A stretch of DNA of 24,740 nt. It comes from a virus. Lineage: Duplodnaviria; Heunggongvirae; Uroviricota; Caudoviricetes. Shown here one piece after another: positions 1,452-20,845 of this stretch. The notes beneath the pieces are model-generated. The model was not told the origin of the DNA, made no database searches, and saw only the letters and a program-made list of their open reading frames with translations. Within the stretch, counting starts at the first letter, position 1, and each line of letters starts with the position of its first letter. The stretch lies in the IMG/VR virus record IMGVR_UViG_648276671_000014; one strand, written 5' to 3'. The translations under genes and the position numbers were made by a program.

Positions 1452-2021
1452 CTATTTAACATACTTGACTGTTAAACTTATAATTTTACCAATTATTTCA
1501 ATGTCTTCTATCTTGCATTCGAAGGCTCTGTTTCCACCCTCGACGAAGATTCTTCCACCGGGTAAACGAGTAATGTCACGGATCGTTATTTCGCCATCAA
1601 TACTTATTACCCATTTACCATCACGTATATCATCAAATTCCTTATCACAAATAAATTCAAAATTATTATCTGTGATTACAAAAAGATTCTTGAATGCCGA
1701 CGGTAGAAATTCCCTATCGAAAATATAAAAACCGTCTTCACACAAGGCCCCATCAGATAATACATATTTAGCAACTTCCATAGTATTTGTATTACCTGAA
1801 GTTTGCTTTGAACCATGCCCGGTTGTGAGCCAATTAAGCGAGGTGCCCGTTTCAAGGGCGCACTGGATTACCCATTCTGCGGGGAATGAGTCACGCATGT
1901 AGCGTGTGGCGAGTGTACTTTTAGAGATTCCTAAATGATCGCACAACGCCTGTCGAGTCTTGAATCCATAAGCTTCTACCATGCGCTCTATAGCGCCTCG
2001 TCCGCCTTTCTCCAAATTCAT
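1452..2021 (-). CDS. cI: 186 CI-type immunity repressor (N-terminal HTH)
   Basis: About 190 aa. The HTH region EAYGFKTRQALCDHLGISKSTLATRY...CALETGTSLNWLTTG resembles coliphage 186 CI as I recall it. Divergent from the early operon. ATG 2021 has GGAG 5 nt upstream; the track's start at 2027 is GTG. Confidence 0.8.
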   Translation of the reverse strand: MNLEKGGRGAIERMVEAYGFKTRQALCDHLGISKSTLATRYMRDSFPAEWVIQCALETGTSLNWLTTGHGSKQTSGNTNTMEVAKYVLSDGALCEDGFYIFDREFLPSAFKNLFVITDNNFEFICDKEFDDIRDGKWVISIDGEITIRDITRLPGGRIFVEGGNRAFECKIEDIEIIGKIISLTVKYVK

Positions 2022-2045
2022 GGTCACTCCAAGTGAACTTTTGTC

Positions 2046-2400: not shown

Positions 2401-2910
2401 ATGTTTGATTACCAAGTTTCCAAACATCCACATTTTGATGAAGCCTGTCGTGCATTCGCATTGCGCCACAACTTGGTGCAACTGGCAGAACGTGCAGGCA
2501 TGAATGTGCAGATTCTGCGGAACAAGCTGAACCCAGCGCAACCTCATTTATTAACCGCACCAGATATCTGGCTGCTTACTGATCTGACAGAAGACTCAAC
2601 ACTGGTAGATGGTTTTCTGGCACAGATTCATTGTCTGCCATGTGTACCGATTAATGAGGTGGCAAAAGAGAAACTGCCGCATTACGTCATGAGTGCAACC
2701 GCAGAGATCGGGCGTGTTGCTGCAGGTGCGGTATCTGGCGATGTAAAAACCAGTGCAGGTCGTCGTGATGCTATCAGCAGCATTAACTCTGTAACACGAC
2801 TGATGGCGTTGGCTGCTGTTTCATTGCAGGCCCGTTTACAGGCTAACCCTGCGATGGCGAGTGCAGTTGATACCGTGACTGGCCTAGGTGCTTCATTCGG
2901 TTTGCTGTGA
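2401..2910 (+). CDS. cII: 186 CII-like lysogeny-establishment regulator
   Basis: About 169 aa in the position after apl. Sequence [10 protein letters not shown]...[18 protein letters not shown] (HTH) resembles the 186 CII family. ATG 2401 preferred over the track's TTG 2395. Confidence 0.7.
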
Positions 2911-2917
2911 GGTGCTT

Positions 2918-3214
2918 ATGCTGACGAAAGAACCATCATTTGCATCGCTGCTGGTAAAGCAAAGCCCGGCAATGCACTACGGTCACGGCTGGATCATGGG
3001 TGAGGATGGAAAACGCTGGCATCCATGTCATTCACAAGATGAATTGCTGTCTGAATTGACCACGAGGAAACGGAGAAAGTCAAAATGTATGCAGCGGAAA
3101 GTGAAGTGGTTTATCAGTTTTGTTACAGAGGGGAGAGTTATTCAGTACCTGAAGATGATTTGCTCTGTTGCTATCCGTCGTTGTCGGGCGATGGCAGTTA
3201 CTTTTTCACGCTAA
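2918..3214 (+). CDS. fil: Fil-like early protein (phage 186 filamentation protein family), 3' end uncertain
   Basis: SD GAGGTG then ATG 2918. MLTKEPSFASLLVKQSPAMHYGHGWI... matches my recollection of Fil-family proteins of P2/186-like prophages. The last ~43 codons overlap the next ORF out of frame and look non-protein-like. Confidence 0.45.
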   Translation: MLTKEPSFASLLVKQSPAMHYGHGWIMGEDGKRWHPCHSQDELLSELTTRKRRKSKCMQRKVKWFISFVTEGRVIQYLKMICSVAIRRCRAMAVTFSR

Positions 3215-3309
3215 AGGATGGGACGTTTTTACGGGGAGAGCAGGTTAAAGAGACGGTACGAAAAAATGTATCTCCCCTTGAGCGTTACCGTAAGAACAAA
3301 GAACGATAG
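3085..3309 (+). CDS. Hypothetical early protein (74 aa)
   Basis: SD GGAGAAAG upstream of ATG 3085. Protein-like composition (MYAAESEVVYQFCYRGESYSVPEDD...). Overlaps the tail of the previous ORF. Confidence 0.5.
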   Translation: MYAAESEVVYQFCYRGESYSVPEDDLLCCYPSLSGDGSYFFTLKDGTFLRGEQVKETVRKNVSPLERYRKNKER

Positions 3310-3331
3310 GTGCGTTTGGGGGATATGAAGT

Positions 3332-3673
3332 ATGGCAATTAATGGCGCTGCGGCGACTGTTCCATTAAGCCCCGGTGAACGCCTGAATGGACTTAATCAC
3401 ATTGCGGAATTAAGGGCGAAAGTATTTGGCCTGAATATTGAGTCAGAGCTTGAGCGGTTTATTAAAGATATGCGTGATCCACGGGATATCAATAACGAAC
3501 AAAATAAACGGGCACTGGCTGCTATATTCTTTATGGCAAAAATTCCAGCTGAACGTCATAGCATCAGCATTAATGAGCTGACCACTGACGAAAAGCGGGA
3601 GTTGATTAAAGCAATGAATCATTTTCGTGCAGTGGTGAGCTTATTTCCCAGACGGCTAACCATGCCGAATTAA
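3332..3673 (+). CDS. Hypothetical early protein (113 aa)
   Basis: ORF with SD GGGGGA upstream, in the early operon. No motif recognised. Confidence 0.6.
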   Translation: MAINGAAATVPLSPGERLNGLNHIAELRAKVFGLNIESELERFIKDMRDPRDINNEQNKRALAAIFFMAKIPAERHSISINELTTDEKRELIKAMNHFRAVVSLFPRRLTMPN

Positions 3674-3740
3674 CCAACTAATGAAATTAATGGCGTAAAC
3701 CCGCCGGGTATCCCTTTATCTAAATTCAGGAGAATTGATT

Positions 3741-3974: not shown

Positions 3975-4201
3975 TGGCTGATGCAATGGATCTCGTACAG
4001 CAGCGAGTTGAAGAAGAACGCCAACGTCATATCCGTGCTGCCCGTGCCAAAACACCGGGCGTGTCCCGCGTGCTTTGCGTTGAGTGTGAAGCGCCAATTC
4101 CGCCAGCACGCCGTCGTGCCATTCCGGGTGTGCAGCTTTGCATTACCTGTCAGGAAATCGCAGAGCTGAAAGGCAAACATTACAACGGAGGTGCTGTATG
4201 A
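3974..4201 (+). CDS. TraR/DksA-family C4 zinc-finger protein
   Basis: CVECEAPIPPARRRAIPGVQLCITCQ is a CxxC-N17-CxxC motif typical of phage TraR/DksA-like proteins found in this position in P2-like phages. Confidence 0.75.
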   Translation: MADAMDLVQQRVEEERQRHIRAARAKTPGVSRVLCVECEAPIPPARRRAIPGVQLCITCQEIAELKGKHYNGGAV

Positions 4202-5055
4202 GCACCATCCTGAAATGGGCGGGAAATAAAACCGCCATTATGTCCGAACTGAAAAAACACCTTCCTGCTGGCCCGCGACTGGTTGAACCTTTCGCGGGTT
4301 CCTGTGCTGTGATGATGGCGACGGATTACCCCAGCTATCTGGTTGCTGATATTAATCCTGATTTAATCAACCTCTATAAAAAGATTGCCGCTGATTGCGA
4401 AGCGTTTATATCTCGTGCCAGAGCTTTATTTGAGGAAGCAAACAGGGAGGTGGCTTATTACAACATAAGGCAGGAGTTTAACTGCTCAACTGAAATTACT
4501 GACTTCATGAAAGCAGTATATTTCCTGTATCTCAATCGTCACGGTTACCGTGGGTTATGTCGCTATAACAAGAGCGGGCATTTCAACATTCCCTACGGTA
4601 ATTATAAAAATCCGTATTTCCCTGAAAAAGAAATTCGCGCATTTGCAGAGAAAGCCCAGCGAGCAACGTTTATCTGCGCCAGCTTTGATGAAACGCTGGC
4701 GATGCTGCAGGTGGGGGATGTGGTGTATTGCGATCCGCCTTATGACGGTACGTTTTCCGGCTATCACACTGACGGCTTCACTGAAGATGACCAGTATCAC
4801 CTGGCATCTGTTCTTGAATATCGATCATCAGAAGGTCATCCAGTCATTGTTTCTAACAGTGACACATCCCTGATCCGTTCGCTGTATCGAAATTTCACTC
4901 ACCACTACATCAAGGCAAAACGCAGCATCGGCGTGTCGGCTGGCGAGAGTAAATCTGCAACAGAAATCATTGCTGTTTCCGGGGCGCGCTGCTGGGTGGG
5001 ATTTGATCCTTCGTGTGGCGTGGATAGTTCTGCTGTGTACGAGGTGCGTATATGA
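4198..5055 (+). CDS. dam: DNA adenine methyltransferase (Dam, GATC-type, orphan)
   Basis: LKWAGNK, FAGSCAV (SAM-binding FxGxG) and catalytic DPPY are all present. ATGA overlap with the upstream stop. Start at ATG 4198, not the track's 4138. Confidence 0.9.
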
Positions 5056-7466
5056 GTCATGACGATATGAGCAACTCTAGCGGCTTTAACGAGGCCGCTG
5101 CAGCATTTTCATGGAACGGCCCGAAAAAGGCCATTAACCCTTATCTGGACCCGGCGGAAGTTGCGCCGGAGTCTGCACTTTCAAACCTGATCACTCTGTA
5201 CGCTGCCGATAATGAGCAGGAACAGCTGCGCCGCGATGCACTGAGTGAGCAGGTCTGGGAGCGTTATTTCTTTAATGAATCTCGTGATCCTGTCCAGCGC
5301 GAAATGGAGCAGGATAAGCTCATTAGCCGGGCAAAGCTGGCGCATGAACAGCAGCGTTTTAACCCGGACATGGTCATTCTGGCGGACGTCAGCGCCCAGC
5401 CCACCCATATTAGCAAGCCGCTGATGCAACGTATCGAATACTTCAGCAGCCTGGGCAGGCCAAAGGCTTATTCCCGCTATTTGCGTGAGACGATTAAGCC
5501 ATGTCTGGAGCGACTGGATTGTGTACGTGACAGTCAGCTGTCTGCTTCTTTCCGTTTTATGGCAAGCCATCAAGGGCTGGAGGGCCTGCTGATCCTGCCT
5601 GAAATGAGTCAGGATCAGGTGAAACGCCTGTCCACCCTGGTAGCTGCGCATATGAGCATGTGCCTTGATGCAGCTTGTGGCGATTTGTATGCCACCGATG
5701 ACGTTAAGCCAGAAGAAATCCGCAAGACATGGGAAAAGGTGGCGGCGGAAACCCTGCGTCTGGATGTCATCCCACCTGCGTTTGAGCAACTCCGTCGGAA
5801 AAGAAACCGCCGTAAACCCGTGCCCTATGAACTCATTCCGGGTTCGCTGGCGCGTATGTTGTGCGCCGACTGGTGGTATCGGAAATTATGGAAGATGCGT
5901 TGCGAATGGCGGGAAGAGCAGTTGCGTGCTGTCTGCCTGGTCAGCAAAAAAGCATCTCCCTATGTCAGCTATGAAGCCGTGATGCATAAACGTGAGCAGC
6001 GCCGTAAGTCGCTGGAGTTTTTCCGTTCTCATGAACTGGTGAACGAAGACGGCGACACGCTGGACATGGAGGATGTGGTAAACGCCAGCAGCAGCAACCC
6101 TGCGCATCGCCGCAATGAGATGATGGCCTGTGTTAAAGGTCTGGAGCTTATCGCGGAAATGCGCGGTGACTGCGCCGTTTTCTACACTATCACCTGTCCG
6201 TCACGTTTCCATTCCACGCTCAACAACGGCAGACCCAACCCAACCTGGACAAATGCGACGGTAAGACAAAGCAGCGATTATCTGGTCGGCATGTTTGCTG
6301 CATTTCGTAAGGCAATGCACAAAACCGGGTTGCGCTGGTATGGCGTACGGGTGGCTGAGCCGCACCATGACGGTACTGTGCACTGGCATCTCATGTGCTT
6401 CATGCGTAAAAAAGACCGCCGCGCCATCACTGCATTACTGCGTAAGTTTGCCATCCGTGTAGACCGCGAGGAGCTGGGCAACAATACGGGGCCACGCTTT
6501 AAGTCTGAGCTGATTAACCCGCGCAAAGGAACACCGACAAGCTACATCGCGAAATACATCAGTAAGAACATTGACGGGCGTGGTCTGGCTGGCGAGATCA
6601 GCAAGGAAACGGGTAAATCCCTGCGTGATAACGCCGAATACGTCAATGCCTGGGCGTCTCTGCATCGTGTTCAGCAGTTCCGCTTCTTTGGTATTCCGGG
6701 ACGTCAGGCTTACCGTGAACTTCGCTTGCTGGCTGGTCAGGCGGCAAGGCAACAGGGTGACAAAAAAGCAGGTGCGCCGATACTGGATGACCCGCGCCTT
6801 GATGCCATCCTGGCTGCTGCTGATGCTGGTTGTTTTGCCACCTACATCATGAAGCAGGGCGGCGTACTGGTTCCCCGTAAATATCACCTTATCAGAACCG
6901 CTTATGAAATCAACGAAGAGCCGACCGCCTATGGCGATCACGGCATTCGTATTTATGGCATCTGGTCACCCATTGCAGAGGGCAAGATCTGCACTCATGC
7001 AGTGAAGTGGAAAATGGTTCGTAAGGCCGTTGACGTTCAGGAGGCGGTAGCCGACCAGGGCGCTTGCGCCCCTTGGACTCGTGGCAATAACTGTCCCCTT
7101 GCTGAAAATTTGAACCAACAAGGGAAAGACAAATCAGCTGATGGGGATACCAGGACGGACATTACCCGCATGGATGACAAGGAGTTGCACGATTACCTGC
7201 ACAGTATGAGCAAAAAAGAGCGCCGGGAACTGGCTGCAAGGTTACGCCTGGTGAAACCGAAACGGCGTAAAGACTACAAACAGCGAATTACAGACCATCA
7301 GCGACAGCGGCTCGTCTATGAACTGAAGTCCAGAGGATTTGATGGCAGCGAGAAAGAGGTCGATTTACTCCTTCGCGGCGGCAGTATTCCGTCAGGAGCA
7401 GGCCTGCGTATCTTCTATCGGAACCAGCGTTTGCAGGAAGATGATAAGTGGCGAAACCTGTATTAA
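5052..7466 (+). CDS. A: Replication initiation endonuclease (P2 gpA family, rolling-circle HUH nuclease)
   Basis: 804 aa. HUH motif (VHWHLM) and paired tyrosines (SYIAKYISK) are characteristic of gpA. Position is after the early genes. Confidence 0.9.
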
Positions 7467-7619: not shown

Positions 7620-7808
7620 ATGCAGGACTATTTTTTGGAGTCTTTGAAGCTCCAGCGCATTGATTTTTTTCTTAAGCTTGTAGCGGCTAGTGAGTGTAGT
7701 GATGAAGAGAAGGGGCTGGCTTTGCAGTGGGTTTCTGAACTGACAGATGAACTCATGGCAAAAATCAGAACCCACGAATACAACCGCTCAATGGATGTCA
7801 TCAGCTGA
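7620..7808 (+). CDS. Small acidic protein (62 aa), possible Tum-like antirepressor
   Basis: Strong SD AGGAGGAAAG immediately before ATG 7620. First gene behind the LexA box. The functional call rests on position only. Confidence 0.5.
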   Translation: MQDYFLESLKLQRIDFFLKLVAASECSDEEKGLALQWVSELTDELMAKIRTHEYNRSMDVIS

Positions 7809-7818
7809 GGTGACTTTT

Positions 7819-8052
7819 ATGCGCATTGAAATAATGATCGATAAAGAGCAGAAGATTAGCCAGTCTACCCTGGACGCCCTTGAATCCGAGCTTTACCGCA
7901 ATCTGCGCCCCCTATATCCAAAAACGGTAATTCGCATCCGCAAAGGTAGCTCTAACGGTGTGGAACTGACTGGACTGCAACTGGACGAAGAAAGGAAGCA
8001 AGTGATGAAAATTATGCAGAAGGTGTGGGAAGACGACAGCTGGCTGCATTAA
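7819..8052 (+). CDS. DinI-family protein (77 aa)
   Basis: MRIEIMIDKEQKISQSTLDALESELYRNLRPLYP...VWEDDSWLH matches DinI/MsgA-family features (about 80 aa, acidic C-terminus ending W-L-H-type). Confidence 0.8.
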   Translation: MRIEIMIDKEQKISQSTLDALESELYRNLRPLYPKTVIRIRKGSSNGVELTGLQLDEERKQVMKIMQKVWEDDSWLH

Positions 8053-8322
8053 GAAACGTTGCTGGCGTCTGAACTTGCTTCTGGCGTCAGCAAGGTTGAA
8101 CAACGAGCTATGCGAGGCGTTAGTGTCAATTTGTTACCTTAACCACTATATATGCCAGGAAATTAACAGTTCTTAAGAAACCGCTTGCATGATCGAGCGC
8201 ATTGAACTTAAGTTTAAGTAACGAAATCAACAGATGATATTGTTGTCTAAATTTTAAAGATAATCTGTTGAGGTTGTAGGCGTCGGAGTGTAGACTTCCG
8301 CGCCATGTGAAAAGGGGGAGTT

Positions 8323-8538
8323 ATGTCAAGCATCGCCGCATTTAGCCTGGGTAACCCAGTTGAACGTCTGGCAAGGGTTCTTAAAGAGAACCAGGACAAA
8401 CTCAATCTTAGTAAAGATGGTTTTGTGTCCGTAGACTTGTCTAACAAAAGAGCAATGGATGCCATCAAGGCACAGATGGATAAGCTTGAAGGCATCAAAA
8501 CGAGCACTGTAAAAGAGAAAACTAATAGAACCAGATAA
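8323..8538 (+). CDS. Hypothetical small protein (71 aa), first gene of the AT-rich cargo cassette
   Basis: Strong SD GGGGGAG before ATG 8323. Stop TAA overlaps the next ATG (ATAATGG), indicating translational coupling. Confidence 0.6.
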   Translation: MSSIAAFSLGNPVERLARVLKENQDKLNLSKDGFVSVDLSNKRAMDAIKAQMDKLEGIKTSTVKEKTNRTR

Positions 8539-8738
8539 TGGCAACATTACTTTTAGCAGTGATTTTGGTTAGTGGTTTTATTTATGTAAACCTATCACTT
8601 TCAACAAGATACCGATATAAGCGTTCCAACGGCTGGGACGCTTATTTTTTGTGGCTGCCTGGGGTATCGTTTTTTTCTCCTTGGCGGTTTTTTCACCTTT
8701 ATTTTGAACGTCAGCGGAGGGTTTCGTTGGCTGGCTAA
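8538..8738 (+). CDS. N-terminal membrane segment ORF (66 aa), probably the 5' part of a frameshifted gene
   Basis: MATLLLAVILVSGFIYV is a TM helix. The frame leaves hydrophobic sequence after the T-runs at 8645-8693, while the +1 frame continues as TM-like sequence into ORF 8704-9378. Confidence 0.4.
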   Translation: MATLLLAVILVSGFIYVNLSLSTRYRYKRSNGWDAYFLWLPGVSFFSPWRFFHLYFERQRRVSLAG

Positions 8739-9378
8739 TGCCTTGAATCTAACACCTGACAGTTTTAATGGCATGTTGTCTTCATCGAAAGACAAACTTC
8801 AAAGAATAAATGAAATCAAACAGATAGCATGGGTTATGATTTCAATTGTTCTCGCTGCGATTTCAGGTTTTGGAAATAAGTTACGCACATCACGTGGAGA
8901 TCGTCGCTGGGATGCCTTAGCTAAAGCTGTGGGTAATAACGCTTTCGAATCATTACTCATGGAAGCGTCCGCAAGACAGTTTCCGATCATAGCAACTCTG
9001 TCGTCTCGCAAAATCTATGTTGGTCTTGTTACTTGTCCGGCGTTAGAAAACGGGCTTTCAGAACACCTTGAACTTCTCCCGATGTTAAGCGGATATCGGG
9101 ATAAAGATGATCTAACGATTAGTATCACGACTAACTATCACCAACATTATCTTGATAGTGGTGTGATAAGTGGAATGTCTCGGCTTAATATCGAAGATTT
9201 CCGTGTGCTCATACCAAAAGATGAGGTTGAAACAATTTCGTTTTTTGATACTGAGACATATAACAAATTTAAAGAAAATGAAGCCAGGGATAGAAAGAAC
9301 TGTCGAAAGATTGGTAGTAAAAGTGCATCTTCGCGCAGCAAGCGTGCAGCAGATGCTGAGTCAAATGATCGTGCATGA
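8704..9378 (+). CDS. Hypothetical membrane-associated protein (224 aa as listed; the frame is open back to 8590)
   Basis: The listed start is TTG with no ATG upstream in frame. Contains a TM helix (IAWVMISIVLAAISGFG) and a soluble C-terminal domain with a basic/acidic tail. AT-rich. Followed by a strong terminator. Confidence 0.55.
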   Translation: MNVSGGFRWLANALNLTPDSFNGMLSSSKDKLQRINEIKQIAWVMISIVLAAISGFGNKLRTSRGDRRWDALAKAVGNNAFESLLMEASARQFPIIATLSSRKIYVGLVTCPALENGLSEHLELLPMLSGYRDKDDLTISITTNYHQHYLDSGVISGMSRLNIEDFRVLIPKDEVETISFFDTETYNKFKENEARDRKNCRKIGSKSASSRSKRAADAESNDRA

Positions 9379-9473
9379 CTATGCTGCATGAGATCGCATG
9401 ATCGTTTGAGGATCGTTTTTGCTAAGGCCCGCCAGAACTGGCGGGCTTTTGCGTAGATCATGCACCTGCATGA
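9365..9473. repeat. Motif array next to cos: GCATGA x4 direct plus x1 inverted, and 5 GATC sites
   Basis: GCATGA at 9373, 9386, 9396 and 9468; TCATGC at 9458. GATC at 9367, 9392, 9400, 9411 and 9456. ATGATCGT is repeated at 9365 and 9398. Confidence 0.6.
9427..9450 (+). terminator. Rho-independent terminator
   Basis: GCCCGCCA (9427-9434), loop GAAC, TGGCGGGC (9439-9446), then TTTT. Lies 49 nt after the stop of ORF 8704-9378. Confidence 0.8.
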
Positions 9474-9495
9474 AAACTACTACATAAAGCGGGCA

Positions 9496-9514
9496 GGCGT
9501 GGCGGGGATACGAG
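9496..9514 (+). other. cos site core (19-nt cohesive-end sequence, P2/186 type)
   Basis: GGCGTGGCGGGGATACGAG followed by TGCGCG. As I recall, P2 is GGCGAGGCGGGGAAAGCAC followed by TGCGCGC and 186 is GGCGTGGCGGGGAAAGCAT, so the first 13 nt equal 186. Location between the A region and Q is as expected. Confidence 0.7.
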
Positions 9515-9538
9515 TGCGCGTAATAACTAATATTCCTA

Positions 9539-9573: not shown

Positions 9574-9657
9574 AGGCCTATAGTTTAATTTGGGAAAACG
9601 GCGGAGTATGATTTAGGTTATATATCCGTCATACCGGTTCGATTCCGGTTAGGCAAA
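9574..9657 (+). ncRNA. tRNA-like cloverleaf element (non-canonical: 19-nt anticodon-position loop, no CCA)
   Basis: Acceptor 9574-9580/9650-9656 pairs 5 of 7. TA at 9581-9582 (U8 A9). D stem GTTT/AAAC 9583-9586/9596-9599 with loop AATTTGGGA. Stem GCGGA/TCCGT 9601-9605/9625-9629. T stem ACCGG/CCGGT 9633-9637/9645-9649 with canonical loop TTCGATT. Confidence 0.4.
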
Positions 9658-9697: not shown

Positions 9698-10447
9698 ATG
9701 ACTGATGACGAGATTAAAAATATTTTCCATGCTCAAACTGATAATGTTAGAGAGCTTGAGAAAGTCTGGAAACAAATAGTCAAAGAAATTAATACTGCAT
9801 TACGAACAGATAATGCAGTCCAAGTTGCACTTAAAACCAAAATGCTAGGTTTGGTTTTTTGCGCTCTTGCCGAAGCTCAATTTTCAAAGTTGATCCACAC
9901 GCCCGGTCAATTTTCCCCTAATGAAATAGAACAGATTAAATATGCAGCTTCATCTAATGTCTCAGATGGATGGTTAAAGTGCATAAATTTGGCTACGAGA
10001 CGACTATCGAAAGGCACAAAGCATAATCATGTTCCTAATGTTATTCAGGAGCTTGAAAGACTAGTTGATGATTTTATAAAAGCGCCAAGTTTAATTAGAA
10101 ATAAAATTGCGCATGGACAATGGGTTGTCGCTCTTAATAGAAAGAATACACATGTGAACTCAGAAATGACACATACTTTGCGTAATTTGACAATAGTGGA
10201 ATTAACAAAGTTTAAAGATGCTTTCACGAGAATGTCGCGAATAGTCGAAGATATTATTAAATCTCCTAATAAAGCTCATTTGCGTGATTATTGGCCGCAG
10301 CTTGAAGAGTTTAGAGCAAAGCAAAAGGAAATGGATAGTTGGACTCTTGCTGAAAAAGTCTTCCAATTAAAAAAGAAATATAATTACTCATCTAATATGA
10401 GATGTGAATCATGCGGTCAGTTACATGTTGATAGAAATAAACAATGA
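9698..10447 (+). CDS. HEPN-domain protein (Rx4H motif RNKIAH), putative abortive-infection or toxin RNase
   Basis: 249 aa, all-helical-looking, with a single LIRNKIAHGQW motif (R-N-x3-H, classic HEPN active site). AT-rich cargo. ATG 9698 preferred because the track's TTG 9677 lies inside the hairpin. Confidence 0.75.
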   Translation: MTDDEIKNIFHAQTDNVRELEKVWKQIVKEINTALRTDNAVQVALKTKMLGLVFCALAEAQFSKLIHTPGQFSPNEIEQIKYAASSNVSDGWLKCINLATRRLSKGTKHNHVPNVIQELERLVDDFIKAPSLIRNKIAHGQWVVALNRKNTHVNSEMTHTLRNLTIVELTKFKDAFTRMSRIVEDIIKSPNKAHLRDYWPQLEEFRAKQKEMDSWTLAEKVFQLKKKYNYSSNMRCESCGQLHVDRNKQ

Positions 10448-10537: not shown

Positions 10538-11578
10538 TTAGTTATCTTCTGTCCTGAGCGAGTAAAAGCTAAAACGGAGAATTTCTTCACCAAGCCAGTT
10601 ATTTAGTTCCTGTAAACGTTTCTGCAGTGACATTAGTTCATTGCGTACAAAAACGCGACTAGCTTTCTCCACATCCCCAAATCCCCCAACATTATTTGGC
10701 ATTATCCCCATCATCTGTGGCGGCACGCGGTGCGCTGCCATCATGTCATCCCGACTCACGTTCTTGATATTAAGAAATTCATCCTTCGCCGCGACTTCTG
10801 ACAATGGGATGATCTGAAGCCCGTCCTTTTTGCCGTTAGGCGAGTACATAAACAGGTTGCGGAAGTTGCCTGGACCTTTGGCGCTTTTCATCGCGTTGCG
10901 GAGGTTGTTCACATCTTCCTGGTTCTGCGCGGCATCGGTCATGTACATGATGAAGCCTGCATGGCTGCCGTTGATGTAATACTTACGGCGGAACAGCGTG
11001 GCAGACTCGTTGAGCAGGGCGGATGGAATGGCAGAAAGATAGCCGGGCAGGCCGTAGATCTCCTGGTTGATGTCCGGTTCCATCAGATGAAAAATGCTGC
11101 CTTTCGTGAACTGATACGGCTGGGTTGTCATACCGTATTGCACAAACCAGTAGGTATCCAGGTCTAACCCGCGTCGGGTGTATTTTGCCAGCGCAGGCTC
11201 AAGGGCGATAACTTCACCGAATCGGTTCGTGCGTTTCTCCAGGTAGGCGTTACCAAATACCAGATAGTCCTGCACAAAACGCGAAAAAGCCTGCTGGCTG
11301 AGCAGCGGATGAGGGATATAGGTACTGGTCAGAATGTTGCACTTTACTGCAATCGGGGAACTGTGATGCACGGCGGCGCGGAAGGTGCGCGCCAGTCCGT
11401 TAAAGCTGACGGGCGGCTCATACCAACGGTCCATCTGTACGCATTCCACATAGTCCAGCAGTTCACGGCGGTCCAGAACAGGAACGGGATCGCCGAAGCT
11501 GAATGCTTCGGCTGTAGTTTGACTTTTAAGCTGGATCTGTTTCGTCGCCGCAGCTCGGTTCTTCTTACTCTTTCCCAT
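10538..11578 (-). CDS. Q: Portal protein (P2 gpQ)
   Basis: 346 aa, P2 Q-like in length and sequence. TGATG overlap with the P stop. Start taken at ATG 11578; the track's 11581 is TTG. Confidence 0.9.
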   Translation of the reverse strand: MGKSKKNRAAATKQIQLKSQTTAEAFSFGDPVPVLDRRELLDYVECVQMDRWYEPPVSFNGLARTFRAAVHHSSPIAVKCNILTSTYIPHPLLSQQAFSRFVQDYLVFGNAYLEKRTNRFGEVIALEPALAKYTRRGLDLDTYWFVQYGMTTQPYQFTKGSIFHLMEPDINQEIYGLPGYLSAIPSALLNESATLFRRKYYINGSHAGFIMYMTDAAQNQEDVNNLRNAMKSAKGPGNFRNLFMYSPNGKKDGLQIIPLSEVAAKDEFLNIKNVSRDDMMAAHRVPPQMMGIMPNNVGGFGDVEKASRVFVRNELMSLQKRLQELNNWLGEEILRFSFYSLRTEDN

Positions 11579-13344
11579 CAAAAAATCTCCACAATATTGC
11601 TGGTATTGGCGGATTCGCCCTGCAGCGGTTCGTTAAACAGTGCGTGCATCGTTGCCCATGCCAGATCGGCGTGGCTGGCTTCTTCGCTGCGGCTGGCTTC
11701 ATAGGTCGGGCGGTTGCCACTGGCGGTGGTGGCGCGACGGATTGCCATAAATGACTGCGCAATGTCGGTATGTCCGGCGTCAAACTCCAGACGGCGGTGG
11801 CTGATAATGTCGTAGGCCTTGAGTACCAGGGCGTTTTTAACGTTGGGGTTGTAGACAAACTCCCGGACGGCAGGAAAGAACGCTTTCACGTTCTCGTAAA
11901 CCCCGTGACCAACGCCGGTTGAGTCGATGCCGATGTAGGTCACGTTGTACTGCTCGGTCAGTTTTTTGATTGCGTCAGCCTGGGCGCGGAAGTCCATCCC
12001 GCGCCACTGGTGACGCTCAAGAATGCGAAACTTACCGCCCGGCACGGCTGGCGGTGCCACCACCACGCATCCGGCGCTGTCGCCGTTCTGCGTACCTTTT
12101 GCCGGGTCATAACCGATCCACACTTCGCGCCAGCCAAACGGGCGCAGGGCCAGAGCATGAAAGTCGGTCCAGACTTCCCAACTGTCCACCATGCACGCCT
12201 GCAGCTCGCTGAGCGGAAACACGGACGCGAGATCGTCCACAAACTCGCACATCAGCAGGTTCTGGTATTCGTCCAGGCTGTACTCCATGCGCAACTGGTC
12301 GAGGTCGAACAGGTTACAGCCGCCGCGCACCGCATCTTCCACAGTGACTATCTGGCGGTACTGCCCGTCTGCGCACAGCAGGCCGGGGGCCAGATTGCTG
12401 TGGGACAGGTCGATGTCCACCTTATCGGCTTTGTTGCGCCCACGATTGAACAGCGCACCGGACCAGAACGGATAAGCACTGTGAGTCAGGCTGGATGGCG
12501 TGGAAAAATAGGTTTGTCGCCATTTTTTGTGAATAGCCATCCCGGAAGCCACTTTGCGCAGCTCCTGGAATTTCGGTATCCAGAAATATTCATCCAGATA
12601 CAGGTTGCCGTGGTAACTCTGGGCCGTGCGGGCATTGGTGCCGAGGAAGTAAAGCGTGGCTCCGTTAGGAAGCACCATCGGATCGCCTTTTAGCTCTACC
12701 TCGACTTCTTTGGCGAAGTCGATGATGTACTGCTTAAAGACGTGAGCCTGTGCCTTACTGGCGGAAAGGAAAATCTGGTTACGTCCGGTAAGCAGGGCGT
12801 CAATCAGGGCTTCACGGGCAAAGTAAAAGGTCGCGCCGATCTGGCGTGACTTCAGCAGGTTGCGGATGCGGTTGGTTTTTCCGGCTTCCCACCAGTGGCG
12901 CTGGTAGTTGAACATGGAGGAATGGAAGATTTCTTCCAGTTTCTCAATCTGTTCATCGGTGAAAACATTCTTTTCCGGCTGACGGCGCGGGCCCTTATTG
13001 CGGTTGGCGACGTTAGGGTTTAAGTCAGCTTCGTTGCCGCCATTGTTAAACTTGCCGATCCGCGCGTGGCGCTCCGACTGGCGCGCCAGCAGGTCAATTT
13101 CTTTGAAATCTTTCCCTTCTTTATGCTCCTTCATGATGAGCTGGCAGTAGCGTGCGGCGGTGGTGAGCTGCATCTGATCCAGCGGCCCATAGTCACCCCA
13201 CTTGTCGCGTTTTTTCCAGCTGTGAACGGTTGCAACTTTCTCGCCCAGCATTTCAGCAATGCGGGCTACGCGGTATCCCTGAAAGTACAGCAGCATGGCC
13301 TGCCGACGGGGATCGAGATCTGCGGGTGTCAGTGTGGTGTTCAT
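11578..13344 (-). CDS. P: Terminase large (ATPase) subunit (P2 gpP)
   Basis: 588 aa. The N-terminus ...DPRRQAMLLYFQGYRVARIAEMLGEK..SWKKRDKW and KSRQIGATFYFA match the P2 gpP pattern. Confidence 0.92.
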   Translation of the reverse strand: MNTTLTPADLDPRRQAMLLYFQGYRVARIAEMLGEKVATVHSWKKRDKWGDYGPLDQMQLTTAARYCQLIMKEHKEGKDFKEIDLLARQSERHARIGKFNNGGNEADLNPNVANRNKGPRRQPEKNVFTDEQIEKLEEIFHSSMFNYQRHWWEAGKTNRIRNLLKSRQIGATFYFAREALIDALLTGRNQIFLSASKAQAHVFKQYIIDFAKEVEVELKGDPMVLPNGATLYFLGTNARTAQSYHGNLYLDEYFWIPKFQELRKVASGMAIHKKWRQTYFSTPSSLTHSAYPFWSGALFNRGRNKADKVDIDLSHSNLAPGLLCADGQYRQIVTVEDAVRGGCNLFDLDQLRMEYSLDEYQNLLMCEFVDDLASVFPLSELQACMVDSWEVWTDFHALALRPFGWREVWIGYDPAKGTQNGDSAGCVVVAPPAVPGGKFRILERHQWRGMDFRAQADAIKKLTEQYNVTYIGIDSTGVGHGVYENVKAFFPAVREFVYNPNVKNALVLKAYDIISHRRLEFDAGHTDIAQSFMAIRRATTASGNRPTYEASRSEEASHADLAWATMHALFNEPLQGESANTSNIVEIF

Positions 13345-19203: not shown

Positions 19204-20787
19204 TTAGAGTTTCAGTGAAATCGTATCCTTGTATTTTTGTTTTATTAACATAAAGTAATCATCAATGCTACCAGAGACTAACATTGCTTCATGATCAATT
19301 CCGTTTATATAGAACCCATTGAACTCAATTGAATTTACTCCATATAAATGTTGAATTCTATCTGCGGTTAATTTATTTTCGGCAATACCAACTAAAATAT
19401 AGCCTTTTGCGCTTTTTCCAATATTATTTATTGCTACGCAAGTTTGTAATATTCCTTTTAAACATTCATCATCAAATTCATTTTTACCTGATAAATTAAA
19501 GAACCCCTGTTTGAAATCATAACTTGGTTGTTCAGTTCTAGAATTTGTTAATAGATTGCGAATTTCAGTTACCCAAGCATGATTCACATACTTTTGAGGA
19601 GCAGGTTGGAAGTAGCGACTTATTAATGCAACAAGATCATTAACACTTTTTTCACGAGTGCTTGCAGCCCAGCGGCCACCATCGGTAACCATAATTATGG
19701 TATTGCCAGTGTTTTTTAATTGCGAGAATAAACCTTCTTTATCAATTAATTGCATATTTTGGTTGAAAAGAAGTTCATAAATAGACAAAAACACAGCTTG
19801 ATAATAACGAGGGCATTCTTGAGATGAATTATCCTCCCCTAAAATATGGCTTCTAAAAGTATCATTTTTTCCGTCATATAGGCTTGTAATTAATTCATAT
19901 ACAGCTATGAAATTCTGCTTAATAGTGGCAGCGTTATTGGTTTGAATGAAAGACTCTAATTGCTGTCTGACACCATGAGCATGAGAGGAGTTTCCTTGAC
20001 CATAGAATGTGTCGAGAGAAGTTGACCCAGATGTGGGTTTTTCTTCTAGACTGATATATGCAAGGATATTGGCTATCAATTCCTCGTCATCAGAATCACG
20101 AATACTTCGTCTTGTTAAAATATGATGTTTTATATAAAAGTGGTTATCGATATTTACCCCGTACTCCAATCTATCGTTACTGATTGAAATTTTGTGCATT
20201 TGCTGGAGATTCATAATGTCAGAATGGCTAGTATCACCTCTGATCGATGTTGATATCGATCTGACCAGTTCAGAGAAGTTACTAACTGTTCCTGCACTAC
20301 GTAATTCTTGTTTGGATAAAATCTTCCCGTTTGAGTTTATTCGTCTGAATACTTCGTCAATATTTTCATTTGTGGAGCTATATTCTGATATTGCAAATCG
20401 ATAACGTGCAATAATTGCTGAAGAATCACGGGAAAGAATTGGTTCTTTCTGAATTAAAGTTCCATTATCTTTAAGTTGTTTTGTTAAAGCTATAGAGTCC
20501 AAATCAAAATATTGTCCATCTAATGAAAATCTCTGTTCGATGAAGCTCATAATTGCTTCTAATCTTTGCATTCCATCCAATATTTCTCTTTGTTCATTGA
20601 TGGTAACAAATAATAATAACGGAATAGGATATTGTTGCAGCATAGAAGATATTAAAGAAGTCTTTTCTTCTAGAGACCATACAAGTTTCCTTTGATAACG
20701 TCTATTGACTATCAAATTTCCTTGCAAATACCATTCGTATAATTGCTCGGTAGTCCTTGAGTCAATATCAAGATTTTCATTTGGCAT
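19204..20787 (-). CDS. DUF262 (ParB/GmrSD N-terminal type) protein with a Schlafen/AlbA_2-like C-terminal domain; candidate single-gene defence protein
   Basis: 527 aa from ATG 20787 (SD AAGGAG 8 nt upstream). DUF262 motifs: NRRYQRKLVW, ILDGMQRL (DGQQR-type), VFRRINSNGKILSKQELRSA. The C-terminus EQPSYDFKQG...CVAINNIGKSAKGYILVGIAE fits the AlbA_2 pattern (ExxxxEFK ... AxxN..GG.l.iGv). About 30% GC. Antisense to the late operons. Confidence 0.8.
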   Translation of the reverse strand: MPNENLDIDSRTTEQLYEWYLQGNLIVNRRYQRKLVWSLEEKTSLISSMLQQYPIPLLLFVTINEQREILDGMQRLEAIMSFIEQRFSLDGQYFDLDSIALTKQLKDNGTLIQKEPILSRDSSAIIARYRFAISEYSSTNENIDEVFRRINSNGKILSKQELRSAGTVSNFSELVRSISTSIRGDTSHSDIMNLQQMHKISISNDRLEYGVNIDNHFYIKHHILTRRSIRDSDDEELIANILAYISLEEKPTSGSTSLDTFYGQGNSSHAHGVRQQLESFIQTNNAATIKQNFIAVYELITSLYDGKNDTFRSHILGEDNSSQECPRYYQAVFLSIYELLFNQNMQLIDKEGLFSQLKNTGNTIIMVTDGGRWAASTREKSVNDLVALISRYFQPAPQKYVNHAWVTEIRNLLTNSRTEQPSYDFKQGFFNLSGKNEFDDECLKGILQTCVAINNIGKSAKGYILVGIAENKLTADRIQHLYGVNSIEFNGFYINGIDHEAMLVSGSIDDYFMLIKQKYKDTISLKL

Positions 20788-20816
20788 AATTTTTCTCCTT
20801 GTTAGATTGAACTTAT

Positions 20817-20845
20817 ATATTGTCAATAAACATCTTTTGTGTCAA
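20817..20845 (-). promoter_or_regulatory. Candidate sigma70 promoter for the DUF262 gene (TTGACA - 17 - CAATAT with TGn extended -10)
   Basis: Minus-strand TTGACA at 20845-20840, 17-nt spacer, TGaCAATAT ending at 20817. This predicts a leader of about 23 nt containing the SD. Confidence 0.4.

Follow-up and report, generated by a model that had tools for sequence, protein, structure and literature searches.

Between a DinI-like gene and cos, the 24,740-nucleotide stretch of viral DNA analysed here (the window) carries a two-gene accessory module of prophages (a moron) that is self-contained and horizontally mobile and belongs to a family that is undescribed so far. Its first gene codes for a small soluble protein and its second for a membrane protein with a modelled cytoplasmic Sm-like domain; the two genes are a true, tightly coupled pair. 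The location and the design of the cassette make it plausible, if a little short of probable, that it is an anti-phage module. The coordinates of the features are collected in Table 1.

Table 1. Features of the cassette and its surroundings in the window, and positions occupied by the pair in prophages.
Feature	Position	Strand	Remarks
Cassette-specific 5' leader	8124..8322	+	AT-rich; holds perfect palindrome AACTTAAGTT; ends in Shine-Dalgarno AAGGGGGAG
Gene for 71-aa soluble partner protein (WP_000094764-type; PHROG 9843)	8323..8538	+	ORF; PHROG 9843 match, E 1.4e-36
Gene for 3-TM membrane protein with Sm-like domain (predicted; WP_000212611-type; PHROG 3630)	8538..9378	+	280 aa when intact; two frameshifts in window copy
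Terminator-like hairpin within coding sequence	8617..8650	+	Codons 27–38; fold −16.8 kcal/mol, z −4.3
First frameshift site	8645..8650	+	T6 here, T7 in intact copies (alignment with E. coli Ec1115, L001)
Second frameshift site	8670..8676	+	T7 here, T8 in intact copies (alignment with Ec1115, L001)
Backbone intrinsic terminator	9424..9450	+	Hairpin 9424–9449, then UUUU; −23.4 kcal/mol, z −4.9
cos-like 19-mer GGCGTGGCGGGGATACGAG, P2/186-type backbone	9496..9514	.	Matches P4/P2 cos region (Rousset 2022, Table S2); kept at empty site
Pair location: P2 A–cos slot			
Pair location: lambda-like tail cluster, between K-like and J-like genes			
Pair location: adjoining int/xis and attP			
Pair location: beside repressor, Pseudoalteromonas phage C5a			

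The cargo formed by the two-gene pair measures 1,247 bp (8124–9370), with junctions at 8123/8124 and 9370/9371 that were set by comparison with an empty site. It has a DinI/Tum-like gene on its left and the backbone terminator and cos on its right. Because empty sites and other cargos are joined at the same junctions (8123/9371), the cassette is swappable cargo of the variable slot of a P2/186-like prophage. The cassette is flanked by the replication gene A (GPA-type, 5052–7466), the DinI-like gene (Pfam PF06183, E 1.3e-22), cos and the portal gene Q. The interval from A to Q (old/tin) is a hotspot of P2-like phages (Rousset et al. 2022; PMC9122126), and the identification of our region with it in the first-pass annotation is borne out by the A and Q flanks, the empty sites and the alternative cargos. 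The block had also been described as AT-rich and lying between a DinI-like gene and cos, which agrees with a G+C content of 41% for the cassette against 50% for the whole window, with the PF06183 match and with the presence of the cos-like 19-mer. The pair is found among the hotspot arrangements in Table S5 of Rousset et al. as "hypothetical" entries and is not among the systems that those authors cloned; the hotspot also hosts non-defence cargo, namely partition systems and the CDT toxin (PMC9122126). DefenseFinder matches have been obtained for 20.8% of the hotspot cargo protein groups (bioRxiv 10.1101/2024.10.15.618418). In the searchable literature, no experiment on the pair was found, nor any description beyond the Table S5 entries.

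The leader in front of the small gene is conserved together with the cassette genes in relatives from Klebsiella, Serratia and Citrobacter, with a mean column identity of 79%. A simple consensus scan upstream of the small gene revealed no consensus sigma-70 promoter, and manual inspection gave weak candidates only, so that no promoter is claimed. At the other end, the cassette had been thought to end at a strong terminator. There is such a terminator downstream, but since the empty site of E. coli Combat2C1 has it too, it is part of the phage backbone and not of the cassette.

The cos-like 19-mer divides cargo slot 1, occupied by the cassette, from slot 2, which contains a tRNA-like element and a HEPN-like gene. 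The latter starts at 9698, 320 nt past the cassette stop and with terminator and cos in between, just as noted at first reading; its product has an Rx4H motif (RNKIAH) and matches Pfam HEPN only with an E-value of 0.047. A likeness of this layout to HEPN-plus-TM defence pairs had been suggested. This pairing is rejected: a search of 5,426 complete E. coli genomes turned up the HEPN-like gene in none of them, not even in the 52 cassette carriers, the terminator and cos lie between the two genes, and the cos–Q slot varies in other cassette carriers (DUF4062; SEFIR; SieB, PIN_12 or DUF262). The HEPN-like gene also has its own conserved companion, the tRNA-like element.

The small gene is preceded by the Shine-Dalgarno sequence AAGGGGGAG (8312–8320), in line with the soluble 71-residue product and strong ribosome-binding site first described. 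In an AF2 model of the protein, calculated from a shallow alignment (pLDDT 73.5), an alpha-helix (residues 12–22) is followed by a beta-hairpin (residues 27–29 and 35–37) and a second, long alpha-helix (residues 42–70). All homologues align on one core of beta-hairpin and helix, with a near-invariant glycine. Pfam and PDB profile searches and the AF2 model revealed no HTH, RHH or AbrB match and no recognisable DNA-binding antitoxin fold. The PDB search gave a 35-residue match of the small-protein profile to the T1/BTB domain of KCTD16 (E 0.0055), which was taken as a chance match to a motif (F-I-D-x-D-G), as it spans half a domain without any structural core. Profile comparison with hhalign showed no relation between the small and the large protein. 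Some database records misname the small protein "multidrug ABC transporter ATPase".

The stop codon of the small gene overlaps the start codon of the membrane gene by one nucleotide (TAATG, within ATAATGG; ATG at 8538), as first reported, and the membrane gene has no Shine-Dalgarno sequence of its own. In the large protein, hydrophobic segments are located at residues 1–23, 34–63 and 94–112, followed by a soluble carboxy-terminal half. Topology prediction on the frame-corrected protein gives three TM helices with the amino-terminus outside and the carboxy-terminus inside, in keeping with the minimum of three hydrophobic helices and the soluble domain expected beforehand. Beyond the TM helices, the model contains a cytoplasmic domain with an N-terminal helix and then a five-stranded, strongly bent beta-sheet, as in the Sm/LSm fold; this domain carries the invariant motif LSGYRDKD and is followed by a basic, charged carboxy-terminal helix. 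The best structural matches of this model are soluble Sm/LSm proteins and not MscS, and a search of BFVD returned weak matches only, to Sm-like viral proteins without a function. At the sequence level, no Pfam LSM or Hfq match was obtained for the large protein even at E ≤ 10, nor did its profile match any PDB sequence profile. Searches of Pfam, PADLOC, NCBIfam and PHROG annotation with the fragments and the intact proteins matched only PHROGs of unknown function; neither protein belongs to a described family in these collections, and the early statement that neither is recognisable stands.

As sequenced, the membrane reading frame of the window is split into 8538–8738 (66 aa) and, in another frame, 8704–9378 (224 aa). 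Restoring both missing Ts gives the length of about 280 aa foreseen for the joined frames, with two corrections needed rather than one. In its present form the gene leads to the 66-aa fragment only, so either the module of the window is inactive, or the T-run losses are homopolymer sequencing errors. It is quite possible, although somewhat doubtful, that the window copy is a dead remnant, a true pseudogene locus from which only the small protein, if anything, is made. The two frameshifts point that way, as do the one-base loss that is also seen there in the complete genome of E. coli MIN9 and the truncated large gene of 7 of 80 relatives. On the other hand, the window is identical to E. coli Ec1115 across 8200–9480 apart from the two T losses, with no substitutions in the cassette, and these losses are the sole indels between 4300 and 9500 (5.2 kb) and fall in the region's two longest T-runs. 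Such a restriction to the longest T-runs is the mark that homopolymer under-calling leaves in sequence data. Of 50 near-identical E. coli copies, 49 moreover have the intact length of 1,058 bp. The intact cargo of Ec1115 with its leader lies at about 3077060–3078370 of NZ_CP126614.1.

Whether the two genes co-occur elsewhere, a question raised by the first-pass annotation, can be answered positively. In at least 72 of 80 species-representative loci, the large gene is immediately preceded by a homologous small ORF (HMM, E < 1e-3), with four more borderline cases, and the spacing between the genes in these 80 loci ranges from −13 to +35 nt. The two ORFs are more than chance reading frames: many genomes have retained them together, with the amino acids kept and the synonymous sites varying; fusions of the two proteins were not seen among the top 150 family representatives. 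The large-protein family comprises 2,885 clusters at 50% identity, and the pair is held together across Gammaproteobacteria, Betaproteobacteria and Acidobacteria. In E. coli, 52 of the 5,426 complete genomes (about 1%) carry it, in the P2 hotspot, and it is also present in Klebsiella, Salmonella, Enterobacter, Serratia, Photorhabdus, Aeromonas, Pseudomonas and other prophages. The two genes move together from one accessory site to another in prophages that are not related to each other (Table 1), with neighbouring genes enriched for integrase, GPA, portal and tail genes; some neighbours are defence genes.

The family extends beyond recognisable prophages, with housekeeping neighbours at several loci. 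This and its very large size would suit a lysogenic-conversion function outside phage conflict that raises host fitness, for example a channel for ions or solutes, MscS-like or otherwise, or a factor in envelope stress, in each case with a small subunit as its regulator. The predicted architecture, three TM helices in the N-out/C-in orientation and then an Sm-like beta domain, recalls MscS, and the P2 hotspot does hold non-defence cargo as well. We nevertheless consider such a function rather improbable: the family profile aligns to the E. coli MscS sequence with an hhalign probability of 0.1%, there is no match to the Pfam MS_channel family (PF00924), the top structural matches of the model are to soluble proteins, and movement as a unit between prophage slots, together with strict coupling to a small partner, is more typical of conflict systems.

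Within the membrane gene, a hairpin with a 12-bp stem (AUAAGCGUUCCA/UGGGACGCUUAU) and a 5-nt loop is followed by a U-run, U6 here and U7 in intact copies. It thus has the form of a Rho-independent terminator, a stable GC-containing stem-loop with an immediate U-run on the sense strand, and was also called by the terminator scan. The hairpin is kept in at least 17 divergent homologues. In their alignment, 88% of cells are paired and three pairs are changed on both sides, and none of 500 shuffles is as good. Synonymous-codon entropy is 0 to 0.17 at the codons of the stem and U-run, whereas the remaining 70 conserved codons mostly have values of 0.6 to 1.0 and none is below 0.35. The stem accepts G-U wobbles, and there are two compensatory pairs that change the amino acid. 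From this pattern of conservation, the hairpin is judged to be under selection at the nucleotide level. A DNA operator is a less likely cause of the conserved inverted repeat in the coding region, because G-U wobbles retain pairing only in the RNA of the sense strand.

In the mechanism that we propose, the cassette would be expressed in the lysogen and act at the inner membrane, where it would shield its host from other phages through either superinfection exclusion or abortive infection. Sm folds generally oligomerise, and the Sm-like domains may assemble into a ring under the membrane, which would bundle the TM helices so that they form a latent pore or bar the entry of DNA. The small protein, made first under obligatory coupling, would bind the cytoplasmic domain as an antitoxin-like inhibitor or as a sensor. 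The hairpin, 80–115 nt into the membrane gene, would serve as a safety catch: full-length mRNA would arise only if a ribosome, coupled from the small ORF, trails the polymerase and melts the hairpin, and the dangerous membrane protein would be kept scarce. The discrete cargo, the coupling, the pairing, the mobility between accessory sites, the documented defence hotspot and the selection on the hairpin argue for a defence role, which we favour tentatively. The PADLOC run proposed at the outset (PADLOC-DB v2.0.0, the 2023 library) covered the small protein, the fragments and the intact protein of 280 aa, and came back without a match at E ≤ 0.1. Searches of PADLOC 2023, Pfam, NCBIfam, PHROG annotation and the PDB brought up no homologue among known defence, toxin or exclusion proteins.

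In the 7 of 80 loci with a truncated large gene, the small gene persists. Together with MIN9 and the window, this suggests a possible cost of the large gene, although truncation need not mean toxicity, because two of the seven copies are in pseudogene-rich symbiont genomes. Recurrent loss of the large gene would also be in accordance with a toxin-antitoxin or addiction module, in which a membrane toxin and a labile small upstream antitoxin stabilise the prophage rather than defend it, or do both, as many abortive-infection systems do. The small upstream gene and the TAATG/ATGA-type overlap with the downstream gene correspond to the order of type II toxin-antitoxin operons, and an internal terminator limiting the expression of the large gene would fit a toxic product. 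No DNA-binding antitoxin fold can be recognised in the small protein, however, the large one matches no toxin family, and moron and hotspot positions are typical of genes that benefit the lysogen; an addiction module is in our opinion unlikely.

Should the cassette prove protective, the catalogue of prophage immunity would gain a widespread, wholly unannotated two-gene system, of a family without a Pfam, PADLOC or NCBIfam model. Its type of effector, membrane-tethered and Sm-like, had no match among the models of known defence effectors in the searched library. The conserved intragenic terminator would be a compact dosage control of a dangerous membrane protein through transcription-translation coupling. 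With about 1% carriage in E. coli and its presence in other genera, the pair may have a bearing on host ranges in phage therapy. A pair that does not protect would still establish a large new family of membrane proteins of bacteria with a predicted Sm fold. A far-reaching proposal, to which we give a slim chance, is that the pair founds a large unrecognised phage-borne immune or exclusion family (about 2,900 clusters at 50% identity), in which a membrane-anchored Sm-like ring would be a gated pore controlled by a helix-hairpin-helix partner of 60–90 aa, and the intragenic terminator would respond to the state of coupled translation. A phage that upsets translation or transcription in the host would then shift the effector dosage and bring about membrane collapse.

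When the cassette is compared with known systems, it shares with P2 old and tin the slot between the gene A region and cos/Q, the nature of swappable cargo and, presumably, expression in the lysogen. Old is an ATPase-TOPRIM nuclease and Tin a soluble protein that poisons the single-strand DNA-binding protein of T-even phages; the cassette, a 3-TM Sm-like protein and a 71-aa partner, has no sequence or domain relation to them (no Pfam or PADLOC match). As in HEPN-plus-TM pairs, the TM and HEPN-like proteins of the window are encoded within 320 nt, but here they occupy separate cargo slots, do not co-occur in 5,426 E. coli genomes and neither matches PADLOC. Lambda RexA/RexB, P4 gop-beta-cII and the "hydrolase + 3TM" system of the P4 hotspot are likewise prophage- or satellite-borne and combine a soluble with a multi-TM protein, and the TM partners in such two-gene systems are thought to be suicide effectors (PMC9122126). 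The cassette differs from these modules in lacking homology, in its soluble partner of 71 aa without an enzymatic or known sensor domain, and in its Sm-like cytoplasmic domain, for which the known effectors in the PADLOC library gave no counterpart.

Compared to Sm, LSm and Hfq proteins, the cassette protein is anchored in the membrane, has an insertion between strands 4 and 5, matches no Sm-family Pfam entry and conserves LSGYRDKD instead of the Sm1 and Sm2 signatures. MscS channels have three TM helices followed by an Sm-like beta domain. The predicted membrane topology and the class of the cytoplasmic domain of the cassette protein are the same, with the differences that it has two extra helices between TM3 and the beta domain and lacks the alpha-beta vestibule domain. 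From CBASS and Pycsar, the cassette is distinguished by the lack of homology and of a cyclase or other signal-producing gene, its partner being the 71-aa protein. Effectors of these systems of the Cap15 type consist of TM helices and a small cytoplasmic beta-barrel that senses a ligand. The cassette protein is similar in its predicted combination of N-terminal TM helices with a small, beta-rich cytoplasmic domain at the carboxy-terminal end, and this domain could gate membrane disruption.

The window contains a P2/186-type prophage, the main features of which are listed in the table. In many P2-like prophages, the segments equivalent to positions 7800–8123 and 9371–9522 are joined directly (in E. 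coli Combat2C1 they lie 7 nt apart), while in others these junctions enclose different genes; the cassette, formed by the genes for a small soluble protein and a large membrane protein, is therefore a 1,247-bp cargo spanning positions 8124–9370. The leader shows the same degree of conservation as the genes and is kept along with them in relatives from Klebsiella, Serratia and Citrobacter; all six relatives aligned retain a perfect 10-bp palindrome, AACTTAAGTT, which may be an operator. A scan of the leader did not detect a consensus sigma-70 promoter. A second cargo slot is located between cos and Q, occupied here by the tRNA-like element and the HEPN-like gene. The CI-family repressor and the DinI-like gene assign the prophage to the 186 type, not to the P2 type. 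The DinI-like gene is located where phage 186 has its SOS-controlled antirepressor tum and, given this position and the repressor family, the prophage is probably SOS-inducible. Among the tail genes, at about the position of the second (Z/fun) hotspot of P2, a 540-residue protein contains a GmrSD_N (DUF262-type) type IV restriction domain (E 1.4e-17); the prophage therefore has at least one recognisable defence gene beyond the two cos-proximal cargos.

Features of the prophage, in window coordinates
Feature	Position	Strand	Remarks
CI-type repressor	1455–2027	-	Phage_CI_repr and Phage_CI_C
Dam-type methylase	4138–5055		
Replication endonuclease A	5052–7466		
Small ORF			between replication endonuclease A and the DinI-like gene
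DinI-like gene	7747–8052		
Leader	8124–8322		about 200 nt, AT-rich, travels with the cassette
Small-protein gene	8323–8538	+	71-aa ORF behind strong Shine-Dalgarno sequence AAGGGGGAG
Large-protein gene, as sequenced	8538–9378		open for 66 codons from 8538; 224 further codons in another frame, 8704–9378
Terminator-like hairpin in large gene	8617–8650		codons 27–38 (YKRSNGWDAYFF); 12-bp stem, 5-nt loop, then a U-run (U7 in intact copies)
Strong hairpin terminator	9424–9449		-23.4 kcal/mol; phage backbone
cos-like 19-mer	9496–9514		phage backbone
tRNA-like element	9576–9654	+	just upstream of HEPN-like gene; Rfam tRNA model
HEPN-like gene	9698–10447		Rx4H motif; Pfam HEPN_MAE_28990 at only E 0.047
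Portal Q	10538–11581	-	
GmrSD_N protein	19204–20826	-	among tail genes
Terminase and capsid genes			also present

The first-pass annotation had described a small ORF with a strong Shine-Dalgarno sequence, coupled to a membrane protein of about 280 residues if two frames were joined, and both points were borne out: the TAA of the small gene overlaps the ATG at 8538 by one base, and alignment to the intact copy of E. coli Ec1115 (NZ_CP126614.1) restores a protein of 280 residues. The two sequences are identical across 8200–9480 except for two one-base gaps, where the window lacks one T of a T7 run (8645–8650) and one T of a T8 run (8670–8676). No other indels separate the window from that genome between 4300 and 9500, and both gaps fall in the longest T-runs of this stretch. 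Among 50 near-identical copies from complete E. coli genomes, 49 have the intact length and that of strain MIN9 lacks a single base. Thus either the homopolymers were misread in sequencing or the gene was inactivated recently; that the large gene is truly dead in this copy is a real possibility, though a somewhat doubtful one.

The intact large protein has no match in the Pfam, PADLOC (2023) or NCBIfam models or among PDB sequences; it matches only PHROG 3630 and, with its carboxy-terminal half, PHROG 23864, both of unknown function. When 1.84 billion cluster representatives were searched with a profile of the family, 2,885 matched at E<=1e-3, of which 2,020 reached E<=1e-10; almost all have 240–290 residues and a common layout. 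According to an AlphaFold2 model (pLDDT 79.8) and hydropathy, trans-membrane helices are formed by residues 1–23, 34–63 and 94–112. Basic loops follow the first (RYRYKRS) and third helices and, by the positive-inside rule, the amino-terminus is predicted to be outside and the carboxy-terminus inside. The predicted cytoplasmic domain contains a helix (residues 136–147) and five beta-strands, followed by a long basic carboxy-terminal helix; invariant residues are grouped in strands 1 and 2 (LSSRKxYVG) and in a loop with the motif LSGYRDKD. The layout is MscS-like, but sequence homology to MscS was sought and not found, and a channel or envelope function unrelated to conflict is quite improbable. 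The small protein is predicted to fold as a helix, a beta-hairpin and a long helix (pLDDT 73.5). Many NCBI and UniRef records name it and its homologues "multidrug ABC transporter ATPase", which is impossible for a protein of 60–75 residues without ABC motifs; the name appears to have spread by similarity.

The hairpin inside the large gene, called by a scan (-16.8 kcal/mol, z -4.3), contains the first frameshift of the window in its U-run. Homologues with as little as about 37% protein identity still have it. Pairing is maintained via G-U wobbles and by compensation at three base pairs; in two of these cases the paired substitutions also change the protein, giving S30A plus D34H in a copy from Aeromonas and S30A plus D34G in one from Erwinia. 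In 16 divergent genes, synonymous-codon entropy is 0–0.17 at K28, R29, S30, D34, A35, Y36 and F37, while at the other 70 conserved codons, the loop glycine included, it is mostly 0.6–1.0 and at lowest 0.35. These frozen sites, together with the wobble and compensatory pairing, show selection on the nucleotides of both arms and the U-run. Family members from Vibrio, Pasteurellaceae, Xanthomonas and Acidobacteria have non-homologous hairpins with a U-run in this position; most of those from Pseudomonas, Photorhabdus and Shewanella have none. The hairpin is a putative attenuator, which a ribosome coming from the small ORF through translational coupling would melt, and expression of the large gene appears to be limited.

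In 72 of 80 species-representative loci encoding relatives of the large protein, an ORF matching the small-protein profile ends a few nucleotides from the large-gene start (4 more are borderline), and 41 divergent small ORFs align on a single hairpin-helix core, in which a glycine is nearly invariant. The large gene is truncated or frameshifted in seven of the 80 loci, two of them from Symbiopectobacterium, and also in the complete genome of E. coli MIN9 (locus 2839–3680), while the small upstream gene is preserved; a burden imposed by the membrane protein could explain this, as could ordinary decay of the prophage or symbiont. Among isolated phages, the pair occupies the same P2 slot in Salmonella SEN4/SEN5 and Klebsiella ST15-OXA48phi14.1, adjoins the repressor in Pseudoalteromonas phage C5a, and lies between integrase and attP in Cronobacter phage phiES15; in other genomes it lies beside int/xis in another prophage and between K-like and J-like genes in an Enterobacter lambda-like tail gene cluster. 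In the latter, a 209-residue ORF (locus 8837–9466) separates the pair from the J-like tail-tip gene; it has no Pfam match and just weak NCBIfam membrane-protein matches, and could encode a diverged form of tail-assembly protein I, or else be a third gene of the cargo. Genes for integrases, GPA, portal and tail proteins are over-represented next to the pair, and some of the neighbours encode known defence proteins. Given these varied accessory sites, the pair behaves as a moron, an accessory unit mobile between prophages.

The HEPN-like gene, proposed earlier as a possible partner, does not accompany the cassette: no copy is present in any of the 5,426 complete E. coli genomes, 52 of which carry the cassette, or in phage records. 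The cos-Q slot of other carriers contains DUF4062, SEFIR, SieB, PIN_12 or DUF262 genes instead; the HEPN-like gene is independent cargo. The tRNA-like element reaches 30.7 bits with the Rfam tRNA model, against a gathering score of 29, and has all arms, with an anticodon loop of 19 nt instead of 7; ARAGORN calls no tRNA there. All seven HEPN-like relatives in IMG/VR (74% to 19% identity) have a tRNA-model match 16–300 nt upstream on the same strand. Covariation is seen in the acceptor, D and T arms, with compensatory changes at 6 of 14 pairs; the length of the anticodon-arm region differs greatly between relatives, and the 3' acceptor strand can also pair with a downstream complement. RNA and HEPN-like gene look like a conserved two-component module, no description of which was found in the literature searched; the RNA is perhaps an antitoxin, decoy or bait.

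Homology to a known function was found for neither protein of the pair, so we infer its function from context and design. The slot is the old/tin hotspot, and roughly one in three of the unknown systems cloned from P2/P4 hotspots gave phage protection (PMC9122126), while about a fifth of hotspot cargo protein groups are known defence proteins (bioRxiv 10.1101/2024.10.15.618418). Elsewhere the pair lies in moron sites between int and att, next to the repressor or in a tail cluster. Its design would be a multi-pass membrane protein with a putative ligand- or partner-binding cytoplasmic barrel, in obligatory coupling with a small protein. A pure toxin-antitoxin or addiction role of the pair is unlikely. 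Together with the limited expression and recurrent loss of the large gene, these features tentatively suggest that the pair could well be a membrane module, expressed in the lysogen, for phage-phage conflict. In databases it is present only as hypothetical proteins or under the wrong name, and no description was found in the literature searched, coverage of which is incomplete; the hotspot tables of Rousset et al. list the pair, which was not cloned there (PMC9122126). As prophage hotspot cargo, the pair consists of a putative membrane effector and a small partner; unusual are its membrane-tethered Sm-fold domain, its very large unannotated family and the conserved terminator-like structure inside the gene.
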